DNA of 64,000 nucleotides from Enterobacteria phage vB_EcoM_IME339 (MH051915); one strand, 5' to 3'; shown: positions 10,238 through 19,014, numbered from the stretch's first letter. Notes: generated by a model not told the origin, from the letters alone. Program-made: numbers and translations.

Positions 10238-10688
10238 GTTAGAGATTAGAAGCAATTTTAGATGGCCATCATGTGCATTAAGTAATTTCGCCCAATGGCC
10301 TTTTGTTATGGATGGTATCCAATTTGGAGGTCTCGAAGGATTCCTCCAAGGATGCAAGGTGAAAAATGTTGAACAACAGCGTCGTATATTTGGGTTATCC
10401 GGGCTTGCCGCCCAACAAGCTGGAAGGTCTTATGCAAGAGCTCAGGACCGTGGCACGTTGTTCTGGCTTGGAACTCCGTTTTCAAGATATTCCGAAGCAT
10501 GGAAAGAATTATACACAAATGCATATTTTGAAGCAGCGATCCAAAACAAGGGATTTCGCAATGCATTACAAGCCTCGAAAGGAAAAGTTTTGAAGCATAG
10601 CATGGCTAGTGGTCTAACAAAAGATGATACAATACTAACCGAAGCTGAATTTATTGATGTGTTAAACCTATTAAGAGACTCTCTATGA
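10230..10688 (+). CDS. NADAR/YbiA-like (DUF1768) domain protein, about 152 aa
   Basis: LSNFAQWPFVMDGIQFGGLEGFLQGCK matches the NADAR signature (YbiA FSNFAAWPIKVDGKTWPTSEHYFQAQK); track start 10224 is TTG, ATG at 10230. Confidence 0.7.
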   Translation: MSELEIRSNFRWPSCALSNFAQWPFVMDGIQFGGLEGFLQGCKVKNVEQQRRIFGLSGLAAQQAGRSYARAQDRGTLFWLGTPFSRYSEAWKELYTNAYFEAAIQNKGFRNALQASKGKVLKHSMASGLTKDDTILTEAEFIDVLNLLRDSL

Positions 10689-11548
10689 AGCCAACTATTT
10701 TGACTGATATTGATGGAGTATGTTTAAGCTGGCAATCAGGCCTTCCTTATTTTGCTCAGAAATATAATCTTCCATTAGAACATATTTTAAAAATGATCCA
10801 AGATGAGAAATTTATTTCTCCAGGTAAACTCTTTAATTGTGACGAAGAACTTGGCGTCAAGTTAATTGAAAAATACAATCGTTCAGATTTTATTCGTTAT
10901 TTGTCTCCGTATAAAGATGCCCTGTGTGTAATTAACAAATTAAAAGAAGATTATAATTTTGTAGCTGTTACAGCATTGGGTGATTCTATTGACGCTCTGT
11001 TGAATCGTCAATTTAATTTGAATGCTCTTTTTCCTGGTGCCTTCTCAGAAGTAATGATGTGTGGTCATGATTCTTCAAAAGAAGAGTTATTCAAAAAGGC
11101 AAAAGAGAAATATAACGTAATTTGTTATATTGACGATCTCGCTCACCACTGCGACCATGCGAGTGAAATATTAAATGTTCCGGTTTATTGGATGGCTCGA
11201 GGAGAGCGTGATAAAATTCCAAAAACTGCGCAGCGAGTTTATACATGGAATGATGTAGAAAATAAGCTTTTTTCACCAAAGGAAAATAAAGAAAGTTTTG
11301 ATAGTGAAAAAGCTATAAAAGATGTAATTGAGAAGATGGTTAAAAACGATTCTTTTCGTTGGAACACTACCTGGAGAACTCCTGGATTTAATCCGTATAA
11401 TCCATATTATACACATCCATATAATCCATATTATACACACCCGTATCATATGAATCCATTCCATACGTGGAGTTATACCAAGCCTGGCGATGCAGGGTAT
11501 TTTAATAGATTTACTAGTGGTGATAATATTTTCCAAGGAGCATTCTAA
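10685..11548 (+). CDS. HAD-superfamily hydrolase-like protein with C-terminal Pro/Tyr/His-rich repeat tail, 287 aa
   Basis: N-terminal motif I ILTDIDGV (DxDG), later CYIDDLAHHCD; C-terminus NPYNPYYTHPYNPYYTHPYHMNPFHTW. Confidence 0.65.
   Translation: MKPTILTDIDGVCLSWQSGLPYFAQKYNLPLEHILKMIQDEKFISPGKLFNCDEELGVKLIEKYNRSDFIRYLSPYKDALCVINKLKEDYNFVAVTALGDSIDALLNRQFNLNALFPGAFSEVMMCGHDSSKEELFKKAKEKYNVICYIDDLAHHCDHASEILNVPVYWMARGERDKIPKTAQRVYTWNDVENKLFSPKENKESFDSEKAIKDVIEKMVKNDSFRWNTTWRTPGFNPYNPYYTHPYNPYYTHPYHMNPFHTWSYTKPGDAGYFNRFTSGDNIFQGAF
11401..11448 (+). repeat. Imperfect 24-bp tandem direct repeat (2 copies) encoding the PYNPYYTH repeat
   Basis: tccatattatacacatccatataa / tccatattatacacacccgtatca. 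Confidence 0.6.
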
Positions 11549-11817
11549 TGTTTGTCGTTCACACTATTTATGAAAATGAAGGTAATACTACGCGTGATTA
11601 CGGTCACGTAAATCAATTTTTTAGATGCAATCCAGAGTTCCGAGCTCAAAAGGATGAACGAATTTTTAAAAAATGTGTAGAGCAAGGTTTCATTTATATC
11701 AAGCACTGGATGCAAGGAAATAAAGTTAGAACTACATATCATAGGTCTTTAACTGAGCTTAATGATGAATTGATTTATAATAGAGCTGTAAATCAAACTC
11801 TGAAGGATGAACAATGA
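11548..11817 (+). CDS. Hypothetical protein, 89 aa
   Basis: ORF with AAGGAG SD immediately upstream of ligase. Confidence 0.55.
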   Translation: MFVVHTIYENEGNTTRDYGHVNQFFRCNPEFRAQKDERIFKKCVEQGFIYIKHWMQGNKVRTTYHRSLTELNDELIYNRAVNQTLKDEQ

Positions 11818-13277
11818 TTCTTAAAATTCTGAATGAAATAGCATCTATTGGATCAACTAAGCAGAAGCAAGCAATTCTTGAAAAGAATAAAGATAATGAA
11901 TTGCTTAAACGAGTATATCGTCTGACTTATTCTCGTGGGTTACAGTATTATATCAAGAAATGGCCTAAACCTGGTATTGCTACCCAGAGTTTTGGAATGC
12001 TGACTATTACCGATATGCTTGACTTCATTGAATTCACGTTAGCTACTCGGAAATTGACTGGAAATGCTGCAATTGAGGAATTAACTGGATATATCACTGA
12101 TGGTAAAAAGGATGATGTTGAAGTTTTGCGTCGAGTTATGATGCGAGACCTTGAATGTGGTGCTTCAGTATCTATTGCAAACAAAGTTTGGCCAGGTTTA
12201 ATTCCTGAACAACCTCAAATGCTAGCAAGTTCTTATGATGAAAAAGGCATTAATAAGAATATCAAGTTTCCAGCTTTTGCACAGCTAAAAGCAGATGGAG
12301 CTCGGTGTTTTGCTGAAGTTCGAGGTGATGAATTAGATGATGTTCGTCTTTTATCACGAGCTGGTAATGAATATCTAGGATTAGATCTTCTTAAGGAAGA
12401 GTTAATCAAAATGACTGCTGAAGCCCGCCAGATTCATCCAGAAGGTGTGTTAATTGATGGCGAATTGGTATACCATGAGCAAGTTAAAAAGGAACCAGAA
12501 GGCCTAGATTTTCTTTTTGATGCTTATCCTGAAATTAGTAAAGCTAAAGAATTCGCCGAAGTAGCGGAATCTCGTACTGCTTCTAATGGAATCGCCAATA
12601 AATCCTTAAAAGGAACCATTTCTGAAAAAGAAGCTCAATGCATGAAGTTTCAGGTCTGGGATTATGTCCCGTTGGTAGAAATATACGGTCTTCCGGCATT
12701 TCGTTTAAAATATGATGTACGTTTTTCTAAACTAGAACAAATGACATCAGGATATGATAAAGTAATTTTAATTGAAAACCAAGTAGTAAATAACCTAGAT
12801 GAAGCTAAGGTAATTTATAAAAAGTATATTGACCAAGGTCTCGAAGGTATTATTCTCAAAAATACCGATGGATTGTGGGAAAATGCTCGTTCAAAAAATC
12901 TCTATAAATTTAAAGAAGTAATTGATGTTGATTTAAAAATTGTAGGAATTTATCCTCACCGTAAAGACCCTACTAAAGCGGGTGGGTTTATTCTTGAATC
13001 AGAGTGTGGAAAAATTAAAGTAAATGCAGGTTCAGGCTTAAAAGATAAAGCCGGTGTAAAATCGCATGAACTTGACCGTACTCGCATTATGGAAAACCAA
13101 AATTATTATATTGGAAAAATTCTAGAGTGCGAATGCAACGGTTGGTTAAAATCTGATGGCCGCACTGATTACGTTAAATTATTTCTTCCGATTGCGATTC
13201 GTTTGCGTGAAGATAAAACTAAAGCTAATACATTCGAAGATGTATTTGGTGATTTTCATGAGGTAACTGGTCTATGA
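11814..13277 (+). CDS. 30: ATP-dependent DNA ligase (gp30), 487 aa
   Basis: Translation MILKILNEIASIGSTKQKQAILEKNKDNELLKRVYRL... recognised as T4 DNA ligase; contains adenylation-site KADGAR (motif I). Confidence 0.95.
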   Translation: MILKILNEIASIGSTKQKQAILEKNKDNELLKRVYRLTYSRGLQYYIKKWPKPGIATQSFGMLTITDMLDFIEFTLATRKLTGNAAIEELTGYITDGKKDDVEVLRRVMMRDLECGASVSIANKVWPGLIPEQPQMLASSYDEKGINKNIKFPAFAQLKADGARCFAEVRGDELDDVRLLSRAGNEYLGLDLLKEELIKMTAEARQIHPEGVLIDGELVYHEQVKKEPEGLDFLFDAYPEISKAKEFAEVAESRTASNGIANKSLKGTISEKEAQCMKFQVWDYVPLVEIYGLPAFRLKYDVRFSKLEQMTSGYDKVILIENQVVNNLDEAKVIYKKYIDQGLEGIILKNTDGLWENARSKNLYKFKEVIDVDLKIVGIYPHRKDPTKAGGFILESECGKIKVNAGSGLKDKAGVKSHELDRTRIMENQNYYIGKILECECNGWLKSDGRTDYVKLFLPIAIRLREDKTKANTFEDVFGDFHEVTGL

Positions 13278-13462
13278 AAGCTTACTTAGAAACAATTGTC
13301 GTTGCTCAAAAAGAAGGTGGAGATGTTTCTACTTCTGTATCACAAATTATGATTGAATTTATAGATGCATATGCTTATAATAAATTCACAGAAACATTTG
13401 ATGCCTATGAAAAAGGTCCAAAGTTTGAAATATACCGTACTCTCTTACCAATAGATTATTAA
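13274..13462 (+). CDS. Hypothetical protein, 62 aa
   Basis: ATG overlaps ligase stop (ATGA); followed by terminator hairpin. Confidence 0.5.
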   Translation: MKAYLETIVVAQKEGGDVSTSVSQIMIEFIDAYAYNKFTETFDAYEKGPKFEIYRTLLPIDY

Positions 13463-13482
13463 AGGCCTTCGGGCCTTTAATT
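13462..13482 (+). terminator. Stem-loop AAGGCCTTCGGGCCTT with T-rich tail
   Basis: Perfect stem with TTCG loop followed by TAATTTTAT. Confidence 0.6.
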
Positions 13483-13483
13483 T

Positions 13484-13491
13484 TATAAATA
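13484..13491 (+). promoter_or_regulatory. Late-promoter motif TATAAATA upstream of alt
   Basis: Exact octamer about 25 nt upstream of the alt ATG, consistent with late expression of a packaged protein. Confidence 0.5.
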
Positions 13492-13514
13492 GAATAAACA
13501 CTAGAGAGGATATG

Positions 13515-15608
13515 ATGGAACTCATTACAGAATTATTTGACGAAGATACTACTCTTCCGATTACAAACTTAAATCCAAAGAAGAAAATACCACAAATTTT
13601 TTCAGTTCATGTTGATGACGCAATTGAACAACCAGGCTTTCGTTTATGTACCTATACATCTGGAGGTGATACTAACCGTGATCTAAAGATGGGCGATAAA
13701 ATGATGCATATTGTTCCTTTTACATTAACTGCTAAAGGTTCAATTGCTAAATTAAAAGGTCTCGGTCCAAGCCCAATTAATTATATCAATTCAGTTTTTA
13801 CTGTTGCGATGCAGACGATGCGTCAGTATAAAATTGATGCCTGTATGCTCCGTATTCTTAAGTCTAAAACTGCTGGTCAAGCTCGTCAAATTCAACTTAT
13901 TGCTGATAGACTTATCCGTAGTCGCTCAGGCGGCAGATACGTCCTTCTTAAGGAACTTTGGGATTACGATAAAAAGTATGCATATATTCTTATACATCGC
14001 AAAAATGTATCACTAGAAGACATTCCAGGAGTTCCGGAAATTAGTACCGAGCTCTTTACTAAAGTTGAATCGAAGGTCGGTGATGTTTATATCAATAAAG
14101 ATACTGGAGCTCAAGTAACTAAAAATGAGGCAATTGCTGCATCTATTGCGCAAGAAAATGATAAACGTTCTGACCAAGCTGTAATCGTTAAAGTTAAAAT
14201 TTCCCGTAGAGCAATTGCACAAAGTCAATCATTAGAATCTTCTAGATTTGAAAGTGAATTATTCCAGAAGTATGAATCTACCGCAGCTAATTTCAATAAA
14301 CCTGCTACCGCTCCTTTAATTCCCGAAGCGGAAGAAATGAAACTTGGAATTAATTCAATAGCTTCTAAAACTAAGGCAGCAAAAATCATTGCCGAAGGAA
14401 CTGCAGATGAACTTCACTATGATTATAAATTCTTTTCAAAAAGTGAGGTTAATGAAGTTTCTGAAAAAATTAAAGATGTAATTCTTAATGCGATTAAAAA
14501 TGAACCAACTACTTCAATAAAATGTTTAGAGAAATACGCAGCAGCTGTTAATCAATTCTTTGAAGAATATAAAGATAATTGGCTTGATAAACATAATAAA
14601 ACTCGTAAAGGGCAGCCAGATGAAGTCTGGGAAGAAATAACTAAAAATTCCTGGAATGCAGCAAAAACTAAATTCCTTAAAAGAATGATTTATAGCTTTT
14701 CTGGAATTGGTGCAGGTCCAATGATTGATATTACTATTGCCCGTGATGGTTCTAAATATACTCCATCACAAAAGCGCGGCATTAGAGAGTATTGTGGTTC
14801 AGGATATACTGACATCAATAATCTTCTTTTGGGTCGTTACAATCCAGAACGATATGATGTAATGAGTGAAAAAGAAATTGAATCTGCTATAAATAACTTA
14901 GATTCAGCTTTTGAAAATGGCGACCGTATACCAGAAGGCATTACAGTTTATCGTGCTCAAAGCATGACTGCTCCTATATACGAAGCATTAGTTAAAAATA
15001 AAGTATTCTATTTCAGAAATTTTGTATCTACTTCTTTAACTCCTATCATTTTTGGACGTTTTGGAATTACGCATGCTGGTATTGGTCTTTTAGAACCAGA
15101 AGCTCGTAATGAATTGACAGTTGATAAAAATGAAGAAGGAATAACTATTAATCCAAACGAAATAAGAGCGTATAAAGAAAATCCTGAATACGTTAAAGTT
15201 CAAATAGGATGGGCAATTGATGGAGCTCATAAAGTTAATGTTGTATATCCAGGAAGTCTCGGAATAGCAACAGAAGCTGAAGTTATTCTACCACGCGGAT
15301 TGATGGTCAAAGTTAATAAAATAACTGATGCTTCTAATAACGATGGAACAACATCTAATAATACAAAACTCATTCAAGCTGAAGTTATGACTACGGAAGA
15401 ACTCACCGAATCGGTAATTTATGACGGTGACCGTCTAATGGAAACTGGTGAAGTAGTTGCAATGACAGGTGATATTGAAATAGAAGACAGAGTTGACTTT
15501 GCATCATTTGTTTCATCAAATGTTAAACAAAAAGTAGAATCATCTCTTGGAATTATTGCGTCTTGCATAGATATTACAAACATGCCTTACAAGTTCGTTC
15601 AAGGATAA
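13515..15608 (+). CDS. alt: Alt-type mono-ADP-ribosyltransferase (packaged internal head protein), 697 aa
   Basis: N-terminus MELITELFD; C-terminal R-S-E ART signature (YRAQS, FVSTSL, EAEVILPRG); located next to ligase as in T4. Confidence 0.88.
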   Translation: MELITELFDEDTTLPITNLNPKKKIPQIFSVHVDDAIEQPGFRLCTYTSGGDTNRDLKMGDKMMHIVPFTLTAKGSIAKLKGLGPSPINYINSVFTVAMQTMRQYKIDACMLRILKSKTAGQARQIQLIADRLIRSRSGGRYVLLKELWDYDKKYAYILIHRKNVSLEDIPGVPEISTELFTKVESKVGDVYINKDTGAQVTKNEAIAASIAQENDKRSDQAVIVKVKISRRAIAQSQSLESSRFESELFQKYESTAANFNKPATAPLIPEAEEMKLGINSIASKTKAAKIIAEGTADELHYDYKFFSKSEVNEVSEKIKDVILNAIKNEPTTSIKCLEKYAAAVNQFFEEYKDNWLDKHNKTRKGQPDEVWEEITKNSWNAAKTKFLKRMIYSFSGIGAGPMIDITIARDGSKYTPSQKRGIREYCGSGYTDINNLLLGRYNPERYDVMSEKEIESAINNLDSAFENGDRIPEGITVYRAQSMTAPIYEALVKNKVFYFRNFVSTSLTPIIFGRFGITHAGIGLLEPEARNELTVDKNEEGITINPNEIRAYKENPEYVKVQIGWAIDGAHKVNVVYPGSLGIATEAEVILPRGLMVKVNKITDASNNDGTTSNNTKLIQAEVMTTEELTESVIYDGDRLMETGEVVAMTGDIEIEDRVDFASFVSSNVKQKVESSLGIIASCIDITNMPYKFVQG

Positions 15609-15611
15609 ATC

Positions 15612-17669
15612 ATGGAACTTATTACAGAATTATTTGACGGCGCTTCGGCGCCGGTTGTTAACTTAAATCCTAAGCATAAAATACCTCAAATTTTTGCTAT
15701 TCAAGCTGGTGAAGAAAGCGTGCTTCCTGGATTTAGATTTTGTACATACACCTCTGGCGGTGATACAAATAAAAACGTTAAGCCAGGCGATAAAATGATG
15801 CATATCGTAATGATAGGTGTTAATGAGAAACTATCATTAGTTAAACTTAAAAACTTGGGTGGAAATCCAATTGGTGTCATTAATGCGGTTTTTGATACTG
15901 CTCTTCAAACAATGAAACAGTATAAAATTGATGCATGCTTATTCCGCGTACTAAAAAGTAAAACAAATGGCGCTGCTCGTCAAATGCAAGTTATTGCTGA
16001 CCGTTTAGTACGTACTAAAGGAGCAGGTCGATATGTTCTTTTAAAGGAAATCTGGGATTATGATAAAAAGTATGCATATATTATGGTTTACCGTAAAAAT
16101 GCCAATTTAGAAGACATTCCAGGTGTACCTCCTATTTCAACTGAGTTATTCACAAAAGTTGAATCAAAGGTTGGTGATGTTTATGTAGATGTTAAAACAG
16201 GTAATGCTGTTCCTAAAGCTGTTGCTGTTGCTGCTTCTATTGCTTTAGAAAATGATAAGCGCACGGATCAAGCTGTTATTCAGAAAACTAAAATTAGTCG
16301 TCGATTAGCAGCACAAGCTCAATATTCTACTGTCGATGCTTCACTACAGGGTGATAGCTTCGCTGCCAAGAAATATCAAGAGTTTGAATCTAAAGTTCCG
16401 GTATATAAAGCAGAAGGACCAATGAACTCTGGCGTTATTCAGATTGGTTCAAACTTCGGCAAAGGAGCTATCGGTGGTATGAGAAGTGCTTCTCGTTTTA
16501 AATCTAACGATTATGAACTAGAAAGCTTCCGAAATCATATTGCATTGGCCCATGCACGTTTACGTGATCCGTCTATCAGGCTGCAGAGCGATATAACACA
16601 TCAAGGTTCTCAAGAATATTTAAAGAATAAAGAATTCTTTGATTATAAAACCGATAAAATTTTGAGCGATCTCGCTGACATTAATATTTCTAATAGCTTT
16701 GATGTTATTAAGAAAATTATCAATGATTTAGTTAAAGGTTCTAAAGCCACGCCAGATGAAAAGGTAGCTATTATTCAATTTGTCATGAATGGCATTTATA
16801 AATTGATTAATGAATCTGCTGCTCAGGCATATGAATACGCAAGCACCGAAGTAACTCCAAAAGGACTGACTCAGGCTGAGTCTAATGTAATTGAAGATTA
16901 TTGTGCAGATTCATATGTTGAAATGAACTCGTTCCTCTTGGGTAAACCAGATTCTACCCGTGAAGAATACATGGAACGAGCTATTAAACACATCGAGACG
17001 CTGGATTCTGCATTCGCCAAAGGATCAGTTCTTCCTCCAGGAACTACGCTTTATCGTGGACAAGAAGTTACTTTTAAAACTTTACGCCATAATATTGAAA
17101 ATAAAATGTTCTATTTCAAGAACTTCGTATCAACATCGCTTAAACCAAATATCTTCGGTGAGCATGGTAAAAACTATATGGCTCTAGATGATTCCGGCGC
17201 AGTATTTTCTGGTGAAGGAGAAGGTTCTGTTGATGCTGAAGATTTAATGCATATGGGTAGTCATTCTGCATATGCTAATGAAGATGCTGAAACTAGCGTA
17301 GGTATGGTAATTAAAGGGGCTGAGCGAATCAAAGTTATCGTTCCAGGTCATTTATCAGGATTTCCATCAGAAGCTGAAGTTATTCTACCGCGTGGAATTT
17401 TGTTGAAGATTAATAAAGTAAGCACGTATATGATGAAAGAAACTGCTTATAACAAGTATCTAATCGAAGGCACAATCGTTCCTCCTTCTGAACAATTAGA
17501 AGAATCGGTATATGATGGCGATCATCTAATGGAAACTGGCGAAGTTCGTCCAATGGCTGGGTTTAATCAATTCCTTGTAGAAGAATCAAAAGAAGAGGAA
17601 AACGAAGTTTCTCAAATCTTGGCTTCTTTGGTTAACATCAACGGAATGTCTAAAAAGTTCAAGATGTAG
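15612..17669 (+). CDS. Second Alt-type ADP-ribosyltransferase paralogue, 685 aa
   Basis: Starts 3 nt after alt stop; N-terminus MELITELFD; high similarity over first ~225 aa, divergent centre, conserved ART motifs (YRGQE, FVSTSL, EAEVILPRG). Confidence 0.85.
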   Translation: MELITELFDGASAPVVNLNPKHKIPQIFAIQAGEESVLPGFRFCTYTSGGDTNKNVKPGDKMMHIVMIGVNEKLSLVKLKNLGGNPIGVINAVFDTALQTMKQYKIDACLFRVLKSKTNGAARQMQVIADRLVRTKGAGRYVLLKEIWDYDKKYAYIMVYRKNANLEDIPGVPPISTELFTKVESKVGDVYVDVKTGNAVPKAVAVAASIALENDKRTDQAVIQKTKISRRLAAQAQYSTVDASLQGDSFAAKKYQEFESKVPVYKAEGPMNSGVIQIGSNFGKGAIGGMRSASRFKSNDYELESFRNHIALAHARLRDPSIRLQSDITHQGSQEYLKNKEFFDYKTDKILSDLADINISNSFDVIKKIINDLVKGSKATPDEKVAIIQFVMNGIYKLINESAAQAYEYASTEVTPKGLTQAESNVIEDYCADSYVEMNSFLLGKPDSTREEYMERAIKHIETLDSAFAKGSVLPPGTTLYRGQEVTFKTLRHNIENKMFYFKNFVSTSLKPNIFGEHGKNYMALDDSGAVFSGEGEGSVDAEDLMHMGSHSAYANEDAETSVGMVIKGAERIKVIVPGHLSGFPSEAEVILPRGILLKINKVSTYMMKETAYNKYLIEGTIVPPSEQLEESVYDGDHLMETGEVRPMAGFNQFLVEESKEEENEVSQILASLVNINGMSKKFKM

Positions 17670-17722
17670 TTTACAAGTCCCTCGTGTTGTGTTATAGTAA
17701 TTTTACTGACATAACATGAGGA
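17669..17722 (+). promoter_or_regulatory. Early promoter plus leader and SD; copy 2 of the 54-bp perfect repeat
   Basis: Identical to 1891-1944; precedes ORF 17730. Confidence 0.6.
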
Positions 17723-17729
17723 ACACAAA

Positions 17730-18020
17730 ATGAAATCTTCTTTACGCTTTTTAGGTCAAGAACTTGTAGTTGAAGGCGTTATTCCTGCTGATAACGCTTT
17801 TAATGAAGCAGTTTATGATGAATTTATCAAAATTTTTGGAACAGATAAAAAGTTCGGAATTTTTCCTTCTGAAAATTTTTCAAAGCCAGAACAGACTGAA
17901 AGCATTTTCCAAGGTGTAGTAACAGGCAAATTTGAGTCAGAAGCTCCGGTAAAAATTGAAGTTTATATTGAAGACAGTTTAGTTGCTTCAGTTGCTGCTT
18001 TTATTTCATTCCGTAAATAA
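17730..18020 (+). CDS. Hypothetical protein, 96 aa
   Basis: ORF with GAGGAA SD from the repeated leader. Confidence 0.6.
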   Translation: MKSSLRFLGQELVVEGVIPADNAFNEAVYDEFIKIFGTDKKFGIFPSENFSKPEQTESIFQGVVTGKFESEAPVKIEVYIEDSLVASVAAFISFRK

Positions 18021-18026
18021 AAATAT

Positions 18027-18044
18027 GGGGACCTTTCGGTCCCC
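18027..18044. terminator. Bidirectional terminator hairpin GGGGACCTTTCGGTCCCC between convergent genes
   Basis: Perfect stem; T-rich tracts on both strands; sits between convergent ORF 17730 (+) and gene 54 (-). Confidence 0.7.
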
Positions 18045-18048
18045 ATTG

Positions 18049-19014
18049 TTATATTGCTCCTAATATTTTACTTTGCGAATTGACAATTCCTGTCATAGTA
18101 TTAATGTTTGAAATACTTCCAGCAGTTCCCCCTAATCTACTAAGTCGTGAAAGCGAATTAGATAATCCAGTAACACCTCCACTATTTCCGAGAACGCTTT
18201 GAATGCCATTTATAGCAGCAGATTCAAGCCACTCAAGCGCAGCTTGTCTATCAACCGACCCAGCCTGCATGACTCTATACGCAAAAGTAACATCAAATGT
18301 AGTTATTTGGTTATCTCCATCATATGATAACTCAGGAGCGCTCACTGACACTGGAATGCATCCGGTGAACATCACCGCAGTATGAGGTAATCCATTACGA
18401 GCATGAAGATTAACCTGAATATCTGCCTCGACATCTTGTGGCAAAGCACGCAGTCCAGTTACTGGGTCTTGAACAGCGTTAACCCAGTCTTGCATCGCAC
18501 GATAGTTACAAGCTTCTGAATCCATTCTAAATGAAATAACCAAAGGGTCCAATTCTCTCCCAGTTATACGAATATTAGGAGAGTTATAGTTCCAGTCAGT
18601 TTCATAGGATAATCTATTCTCTGGCATTTTTACAGAATATATCATCAATCCAGATGAATTATATGCCATATTAAAGAAATCAATTAAATATGTACCAACT
18701 GTAAATGAGCCCAATAAACTTTGAACTGTACGTTGACTCATGGCACCAATAAGATATTTACTAACCCCTGATTTTCTTATCAGTTTTTGTGTGCCAGCGG
18801 TAATTAGCGTGGTAATTCCCTGATTAATATCGCCTTGAGTCAATCCTAACCAATCTGAATTTAGGCCCAAGTTATTATAAGAAAAGTTGCTAATTGAACT
18901 TATCAACGAAGAGCTTTTAGTTGATGGAGTTGTCGCAAAAACACAGCTAAACATATTATTACGTTGGAAATCTGCGTTTATTGCTTGATTATTAAATTCC
19001 TCTAAAGAATACAT
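18049..19014 (-). CDS. 54: Baseplate tail tube initiator gp54
   Basis: Length and position in the conserved 54-48-29-28-27-51 order. Confidence 0.9.
   Translation of the reverse strand: MYSLEEFNNQAINADFQRNNMFSCVFATTPSTKSSSLISSISNFSYNNLGLNSDWLGLTQGDINQGITTLITAGTQKLIRKSGVSKYLIGAMSQRTVQSLLGSFTVGTYLIDFFNMAYNSSGLMIYSVKMPENRLSYETDWNYNSPNIRITGRELDPLVISFRMDSEACNYRAMQDWVNAVQDPVTGLRALPQDVEADIQVNLHARNGLPHTAVMFTGCIPVSVSAPELSYDGDNQITTFDVTFAYRVMQAGSVDRQAALEWLESAAINGIQSVLGNSGGVTGLSNSLSRLSRLGGTAGSISNINTMTGIVNSQSKILGAI

Follow-up and report, generated by a model that had tools for sequence, protein, structure and literature searches.

In the genome of Enterobacteria phage vB_EcoM_IME339 (MH051915), two genes encoding ADP-ribosyltransferases (ARTs) of the Alt type lie one behind the other on the same strand. 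The analysis covered a 64,000-nt stretch of this genome (hereafter the window), which is a segment of a Tequatrovirus (T4-like) genome, and all coordinates are counted from its first letter. The tandem pair is the usual, already annotated configuration of Tequatrovirus (Alt/Alt2), and its core consists of the following elements:

13515–15608, + strand: Alt copy 1 (alt), 697 aa when read from 13515, with an alternative ATG at 13512 (698 aa)
15612–17669, + strand: Alt copy 2 (of the alt.-2 / Alt2 / altB type), 685 aa
15600–15604, + strand: AAGGA ribosome-binding site of copy 2, within the last codons of copy 1 and 7 nt before the ATG

A first-pass annotation of the window had reported two open reading frames (ORFs) of 697 and 685 aa, 3 nt apart, and this was confirmed in the sequence together with the coordinates given: copy 1 ends with a TAA at 15606–15608, the 3-nt spacer atc follows, and the ATG of copy 2, served by the AAGGA, is found at 15612. 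Both proteins begin with MELITELFD, as it had also described. Copy 1 opens with a double start, ATGATG (13512–13517), with a GAGG at 13506–13509 at a distance of 2 nt (first ATG) or 5 nt (second ATG); the second (MELITE...) is annotated as the start in T4 and RB32, and the first (MMELITE...) in Bas37. The second ATG (13515) was taken as the start because it fits the published ITE-6 cleavage numbering and the MELITELF start of T4 Alt.

Both products match the Pfam family ADPrib_exo_Tox (PF03496, cut-off 23.4 bits), copy 1 with 129.2 bits (E = 1.6e-37; aa 378–627) and copy 2 with 73.1 bits (aa 416–620), and phrog_802 (‘Alt-like RNA polymerase ADP-ribosyltransferase’) spans either protein over its full length (E = 2.6e-272 for copy 1 and 1.4e-255 for copy 2). 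For a further family, Tevenvirinae_ADPRT (PF26846), the matches are precomputed ones on a chimeric homolog (P0007) and on a 99%-identical cluster (P0001), not scores of the window proteins themselves. The R-S-E signature, which the first-pass annotation had recognized in both copies, could be located by coordinate: VYRAQ at 14946–14960 in copy 1 and LYRGQ at 17049–17063 in copy 2, FVSTSL at 15021–15038 and 17124–17141, and EAEVILPRG at 15273–15299 and 17370–17396. The catalytic residues are R480, S505-T506-S507 and E587/E589 in copy 1, and R482, S507-T508-S509 and E587/E589 in copy 2. In an alignment of 24 homologs, covering 41–99% identity, every sequence has the catalytic Arg, the two Ser and the two Glu, and at least 90% of them have the Thr. 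The catalytic Arg and Glu are not lost from copy 2 in this alignment, and both proteins are indeed full-length ARTs of the Alt type with intact catalytic residues. In such enzymes, the ExE form of the Q/E-x-E motif of the ADP-ribosylating turn-turn (ARTT) loop predicts arginine specificity, and Alt itself carries out the NAD+-dependent ADP-ribosylation of arginines in host proteins (the RNA polymerase alpha subunit, MazF and others). From their ExE motif, both copies are predicted to be arginine-specific.

AlphaFold2 models of the two proteins, with a mean predicted local distance difference test (pLDDT) score of 77 for copy 1 and 74 for copy 2, comprise an alpha/beta N-domain (approximately residues 12–195, with helices to about residue 236), a long helical center, the ART domain and a C-terminal tail modeled with low confidence (pLDDT <50). 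The domain boundaries adopted here are aa 7–236 for the N-domain of either copy, followed in copy 1 by the helical center (237–415), the ART domain and a C-terminal propeptide (aa 633–697), and in copy 2 by the helical center, the ART domain and a C-terminal propeptide (aa 632–685). Both models match Vis, C3, CDTa, iota Ia and VIP2, that is, the C3/iota/Vis-type ART fold. The Alt copies have the catalytic fold and the R, S-T-S and E-x-E motifs in common with these bacterial R-S-E toxins. However, the toxins are delivered by secretion or through a binary-toxin pore, whereas Alt proteins are loaded into the head of the phage and injected, and only the latter possess the extra N-domain of about 230 aa, the helical center and propeptides cleaved by the gp21 protease.

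The two copies are 41% identical over 717 columns (BLASTP, E = 7e-158). The first-pass annotation had noted a shared N-terminal region and central regions that could not be aligned by eye, and the figures bear this out, with 67% identity over residues 1–236 and approximately 18% over residues 237–415; the ART domains are about 35% identical and the C-terminal tails about 44%. Sliding windows placed the most divergent segments (2–18% identity) in the helical center and in the insert between the STS motif and the ExE loop. Reasoning from substrate recognition by C3 and iota-type ARTs, these two segments are the likely determinants of substrate choice, and the earlier suggestion that the divergent center sets the choice of target is plausible, the centers being unrelated.

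Both copies follow a late promoter and are flanked by gene 30/alt.1 on one side and by alt.-3/gene 54 on the other. The neighbors of the pair are:

11814–13277, + strand: gene 30, DNA ligase, the upstream neighbor
13274–13462, + strand: alt.1, between gene 30 and copy 1
17730–18020, + strand: alt.-3 (DUF5498, 96 aa), the downstream neighbor, 100% identical to T4 Alt.-3

Genes 54, 48 and 29 are convergent and are found beyond alt.-3. A megablast search with the locus (13200–18100), in which records covering at least 80% of it were counted, retrieved the whole locus from 343 phage records at 94–99% identity, most of them annotating ‘Alt-like RNA polymerase ADP-ribosyltransferase (x2)’ in the RefSeq wording. 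The second copy is carried by T2, T6, RB3, RB32 and RB68, and its N-domain is 100% identical across many genomes. It was named alt.-2 in ime09 and in RB32, whose record (DQ904452) reads ‘apparent insertion in alt.-2; similar to alt’. In Bas37 (Escherichia phage KarlGJung, MZ501089), the products annotated as ‘Alt’ (bas37_0033) and ‘Alt2’ (bas37_0032) are 99.4% and 99.6% identical to copies 1 and 2, and the layout is that of the window (lig, alt.1, Alt, a 3-nt gap, Alt2, alt.-3, gp54), so that there is essentially no difference between these orthologous pairs. A tandem with a 3-nt gap between alt.1 and alt.-3 is likewise formed by altA and altB of Dhakavirus JS10 (EU863409). In addition, alt.-1 and alt.-2 had already been given as paralogous duplications of alt, and a full-length alt duplicate had been reported in phage 44RR (Nolan et al. 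2006, PMC1524935). The first-pass annotation had regarded copy 2 as a lineage-specific paralog, a novelty that, in its own terms, a second full-length alt annotated at this position in the nearest relatives would remove. Since ime09/RB32, Bas37 and JS10 carry precisely such a gene, the claim falls. As a genomic feature, the pair adds nothing new, having been annotated since RB32 (DQ904452).

A third alt copy was also considered for Tequatrovirus and rejected: the three match places seen per record are paralogue cross-matches with the query, and there is no third gene. Outside this genus, three separate Alt N-domain matches occur in some T4-like phages (PSD2002, fDHCT2 and Pseudomonas phage PspYZU05), which suggests, at the level of sequence matches, arrays of up to three Alt paralogs; Mosigvirus and Klebsiella phages show one N-domain match.

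The N- and C-terminal sequence common to both genes, as well as the occurrence of single chimeric alt genes in some public metagenome contigs, could be taken to mean that the pair is an assembly artefact, arising from a repeat that was collapsed or expanded or from two strains merged into a chimera. The probability of this is close to nil. Mis-assembly is excluded by the finding of the same two-gene arrangement, at the identities given above, in 343 independently sequenced isolate genomes; moreover, the longest exact nucleotide match between the copies is only 22 nt, and both ORFs are intact and under constraint. The chimeric genes come from Logan metagenome contigs (L005:5001–7055, from SRR24155011, 65 kb; L004:5001–7061), in which a single alt gene occupies the interval from alt.1 to alt.-3. 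This gene is a clean chimera that starts with the copy 1 N-domain and passes to copy 2 in one switch, an event that would delete the body of copy 1; the switch points in proteins P0003, P0004, P0005 and P0007 fall at residues 43–54, 102–110, ~174–180 and ~218–225. As no isolate genome of that form was present among the best matches, the chimeras, which may be real recombinants or assembly artefacts, were set aside as evidence for natural recombination.

Information on the history of the second copy came from T4, to which the first-pass annotation had ascribed only small ORFs between alt and gene 54. This proved correct: they are alt.-1 and alt.-2, remnants of copy 2 which, according to the T4 record, ‘reflect an old duplication of the first part of gene alt’. 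The T4 spacer between alt and gene 54 corresponds to window positions 15603–15959 plus 17650–18048, each 96% identical, and both pieces are joined in T4 at one copy of a 9-bp sequence that is found twice in the window:

15951–15959, + strand: left CTAAAAAGT, 9-bp direct repeat, the left endpoint of the T4 deletion
17650–17658, + strand: right CTAAAAAGT, 9-bp direct repeat, the right endpoint of the 1,699-bp T4 deletion

Residues 1–56 of copy 2 match T4 Alt.-1 at 95% identity and residues 62–116 match T4 Alt.-2 at 98%, whereas the identity of these two proteins to copy 1 is only about 60%. The lesions in the T4 gene thus amount to one frameshift near codon 55 and the 1,699-bp deletion between short direct repeats. 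Based on the identity of the spacer, the CTAAAAAGT junction and the resemblance of Alt.-1 and Alt.-2 to copy 2, sequence comparison identifies T4 alt.-1/alt.-2 as a pseudogene of copy 2. As this is the decayed remnant of the same second copy, the two-copy state is the ancestral and majority one, and T4 the derived exception. Of 500 matching records, 91 show the T4-type deletion junction as one contiguous sequence and the others have an intact gene; the body of copy 2 missing from T4 (15960–17650) is present in about 400 records. Otherwise, T4 Alt (gpAlt, NP_049811) agrees with copy 1 in position, late promoter, terminator, R-S-E ART class and gp21 sites (ITE-6, LTE), and its C-terminal propeptide is 94% identical to that of copy 1; the difference is that T4 keeps only a frameshifted, 1.7-kb-deleted remnant of copy 2.

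These data bear directly on the possibility that copy 2 arose by a recent, lineage-specific duplication of alt. The tandem, same-strand disposition of the genes, the start and end motifs common to both and the absence of a full-length second copy from T4 would all fit such an event. However, copies that had separated recently should not be only 41% identical, with essentially unalignable centers. Furthermore, orthologs of copy 2 exist in the ~400 records mentioned, T2, T6 and RB32 among them, a copy-2-type altB (58% identical in the ART domain, compared with 38% to copy 1) is found at the same position in Dhakavirus, and T4 retains its 96%-identical remnant. A recent duplication is therefore highly improbable, and it was rejected as refuted by the distribution of copy 2 and the T4 remnant.

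The comparison with T4 and JS10 also suggests that the Alt proteins evolve as modules. Copy 1 and T4 Alt, 70% identical overall, are 99–100% identical over residues 1–245, but only 11–35% in the center and 66% in the ART domain, identity rising again to 85–94% in the tail; a sharp mosaic boundary is thus found near codon 245 of copy 1, and T4 Alt represents a different effector allele. The copy 1 allele is the common one, being found in 334 records, including those of T2, RB6 and RB68. In JS10, the counterpart of copy 1 is AltA (66% identical overall, 94% in the ART domain; the effector body, 14240–15330, is ~81% identical to altA at the nucleotide level), and that of copy 2 is AltB (48% overall). 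In contrast, the flanking genes of the window are 44–64% identical to those of JS10 and 97–100% identical to those of T4. Because the ART domain of copy 1 is closer to that of JS10 AltA than to that of T4 Alt, although its flanks are T4-like, the boundary near codon 245 suggests the exchange of a cassette between genera. The N-domains behave differently: they are 65–67% identical between the paralogs of one genome (65% in JS10) and 41–46% between genera, as is the case for those of JS10 and the window. The N-domain would therefore track the genome and the effector body the paralog class. In the simplest reading of these identities, a genus-specific N-module, co-evolving or homogenized within a phage, carries horizontally moving effector cassettes (center plus ART domain), the N-domain probably being the part responsible for head incorporation or delivery.

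Copy 2 is a constrained protein-coding gene, and both copies are under strong purifying selection: with respect to the REP3 and RB32 orthologs (synonymous divergence, dS, of 0.15–0.27), the ratio of non-synonymous to synonymous substitution rates (dN/dS) is 0.04–0.05 for each of them. Within copy 2 it amounts to 0.03–0.04 in the ART domain and 0.02–0.03 in the C-terminal tail, the center being the most relaxed region (dN/dS of about 0.1). These values, together with the invariant catalytic residues, are to be set beside the proposal that copy 2 is a non-catalytic or decaying paralog, for instance a structural head component or a decoy. In its favor are the Pfam ART score of copy 2, which is below that of copy 1 (73 vs. 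129 bits), the loss of the gene from T4 and about 90 relatives and the fact that no published phenotype was found, and we consider it quite unlikely.

T4 Alt is a protein of the prohead core and head, with a copy number of about 40, and is injected together with the DNA (PMC9958956, PMC9026906), and mass spectrometry showed that gp21 cleaves it at ITE-6 and LTE-619, with the loss of 63 C-terminal residues (PMC5694885). The corresponding motifs are ITE-6 (13524–13532) and LTE-632 (residues 630–632; 15402–15410) in copy 1, and ITE-6 (15621–15629) and, at the homologous position, LEE-631 (residues 629–631; 17496–17504) in copy 2. The Glu residues of both motifs are invariant in the alignment, the LxE being located ~55–65 residues from the C-terminus, and a conserved S-V-(I)-Y-D-G-D-x-L-M-E-T-G-E segment directly follows it in both copies. 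This C-terminal motif, conserved in the two proteins, was absent from the first-pass annotation. Trimming at both sites would yield mature proteins with predicted masses of 70.2 kDa (copy 1) and 69.1 kDa (copy 2). As ITE-6 and the C-terminal LxE, sites mapped experimentally in T4 Alt, are retained, both copies are likely packaged and injected; that both enzymes are packaged, as initially proposed, is probable in view of the N-domain and gp21 motifs kept in each. The shared N-terminus had been interpreted as a processing and capsid-targeting segment, and this needs to be qualified. The gp21 site is indeed shared and the region is a common module, but only six residues are removed at ITE-6 in T4 Alt (PMC5694885), and the remaining ~230 residues form a folded alpha/beta domain kept in the mature protein. 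A similar logic, in which a conserved targeting and processing module is combined with a variable, injected anti-host payload and gp21 cleavage, applies to the phage internal proteins with a capsid-targeting sequence (CTS) (PMC9026906; preprint). In these, however, the CTS of about 10–20 residues is removed, whereas Alt proteins lose only six N-terminal residues, keep a large folded N-domain and, unlike the internal proteins, also lose a C-terminal propeptide.

It could still be that only copy 1 is packaged and that copy 2 acts in the producing cell, like ModA/ModB but late, without being injected. We obtained no proteomic data that would place Alt2 in virions, and translation from a downstream cistron could yield lower amounts of the protein. 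Against this, copy 2 has kept the full N-domain (67% identical to that of copy 1, and invariant across many genomes), the two gp21 motifs and, behind the C-terminal one, the YDGDxLMETGE segment, all of which would have no obvious purpose outside the head. We therefore regard an unpackaged copy 2 as unlikely.

The first-pass annotation had placed a late-promoter motif and a terminator ahead of the pair, and both were found:

13458–13481, + strand: terminator-like hairpin after alt.1, with a 10-bp stem and a UUCG loop, then UUUUAU
13484–13491, + strand: T4-type late promoter box TATAAATA, a motif match upstream of copy 1

The hairpin has a folding energy of −13.5 kcal/mol (z = −3.7 with respect to shuffled sequences). 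The TATAAATA box occurs 21 times in the window, compared with nine expected; that at 13484–13491 is the sole one placed to drive the pair, there being none between the two genes. A single box upstream and a gap of only 3 nt point to one late promoter for both, and late expression fits head packaging, as for T4 alt. A further exact TATAAATA is found inside copy 1 (14888–14895), ~720 nt upstream of copy 2; it may have arisen by chance or may serve copy 2 as an internal late promoter.

Immediately behind the stop codon of copy 2, a sigma-70/early-like promoter match for alt.-3 (TTTACA-17-TATAGT with TG) is found at 17670–17698, and the block is closed by one more element:

18025–18046, no strand assigned: bidirectional terminator-like hairpin separating the alt block from the convergent gene 54; alt.-3 ends at it and shares it with gene 54

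Mutants of T4 Alt.-3 with C-terminal extensions escape the CmdTAC defense because they block the degradation of CmdA (PMC11618068). On the other side of the locus, a gene 30.2-like ORF (10685–11548) encodes 287 aa, with a short peptide repeated in tandem at its end, NPYNPYYTHPYNPYYTHPYHMNPF; the annotated length of T4 gp30.2 is 278 aa (837 bp).

All these observations can be integrated in a model that we consider likely: the locus is the standard Tequatrovirus alt–alt.-2 operon, encoding two ancient paralogous R-S-E (Alt/VIP2/C3) arginine mono-ADP-ribosyltransferases of four-part construction that are packaged in the head and injected. Both genes would be transcribed from the one late promoter, copy 2 being translated from its own Shine–Dalgarno sequence 3 nt after the copy 1 stop codon. 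Each protein would begin with an N-terminal propeptide of six residues, the last three being the gp21 site ITE. This would be followed by an alpha/beta N-domain of ~230 aa that is specific to the genus (Pfam Tevenvirinae_ADPRT) and most likely serves prohead-core incorporation and delivery, by a variable effector cassette formed by the helical center and the ART catalytic domain, and by a C-terminal propeptide of ~55–65 aa beyond the conserved (L)xE gp21 site. Late in infection, both proteins would be built into the prohead core and trimmed by gp21 at both ends, to ~70 and ~69 kDa, and at the next infection they would be injected with the DNA and ADP-ribosylate, on arginine and with NAD+, different sets of host proteins. 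The notion of different target sets is based on the unrelated helical centers and on the equally unrelated insert between the STS motif and the ARTT/ExE loop; for copy 2, we infer packaging, cleavage, activity and distinct targets alike.

Several points weigh against this model. Approximately 18% of the relatives, T4 included, live without copy 2, which must therefore be dispensable in at least some conditions. Direct evidence for copy 2 in virions, for its cleavage or for its enzymatic activity was not found, literature searches returned no paper characterizing Alt2 or a second Alt, and copy 2 (bas37_0032) is not mentioned as a hit in the text describing a transposon screen of Bas37 (10.1101/2025.11.20.689424).

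That same preprint provides a functional context for the differences between Alt alleles. T4 Alt helps to evade the Mokosh type I system and rescues phages from it, whereas Bas37 Alt (bas37_0033, the allele of copy 1) ‘exhibits notable sequence differences’ and fails to take the place of T4 Alt against Mokosh type I; bas37_0033 has a conditional importance on a clinical E. coli isolate and was also among the most significant gene-disruption hits when uropathogenic isolates were compared with a laboratory strain (10.1101/2025.11.20.689424). A tentative extension of the operon model, possible but falling short of probable in our judgment, is that Alt2 is a second head-packaged, injected arginine ART, guided by its unrelated helical center and STS-to-ARTT insert to host targets untouched by Alt, plausibly components of anti-phage defense. 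The locus would then be an array of two slots, with effector cassettes passing from genus to genus and being joined to a delivery domain specific to the genus.

What is known about the function of injected ARTs derives almost entirely from T4, a phage without Alt2 and with an Alt allele different from that of most of its relatives. Considering this, and the fact that Alt alleles differ in their counter-defense against Mokosh type I, Alt2 is a ready candidate for a second injected host-takeover or anti-defense enzyme. If this were true, T4, having deleted Alt2 and carrying a minority Alt allele, would give too small a picture of the effectors that its own genus injects.

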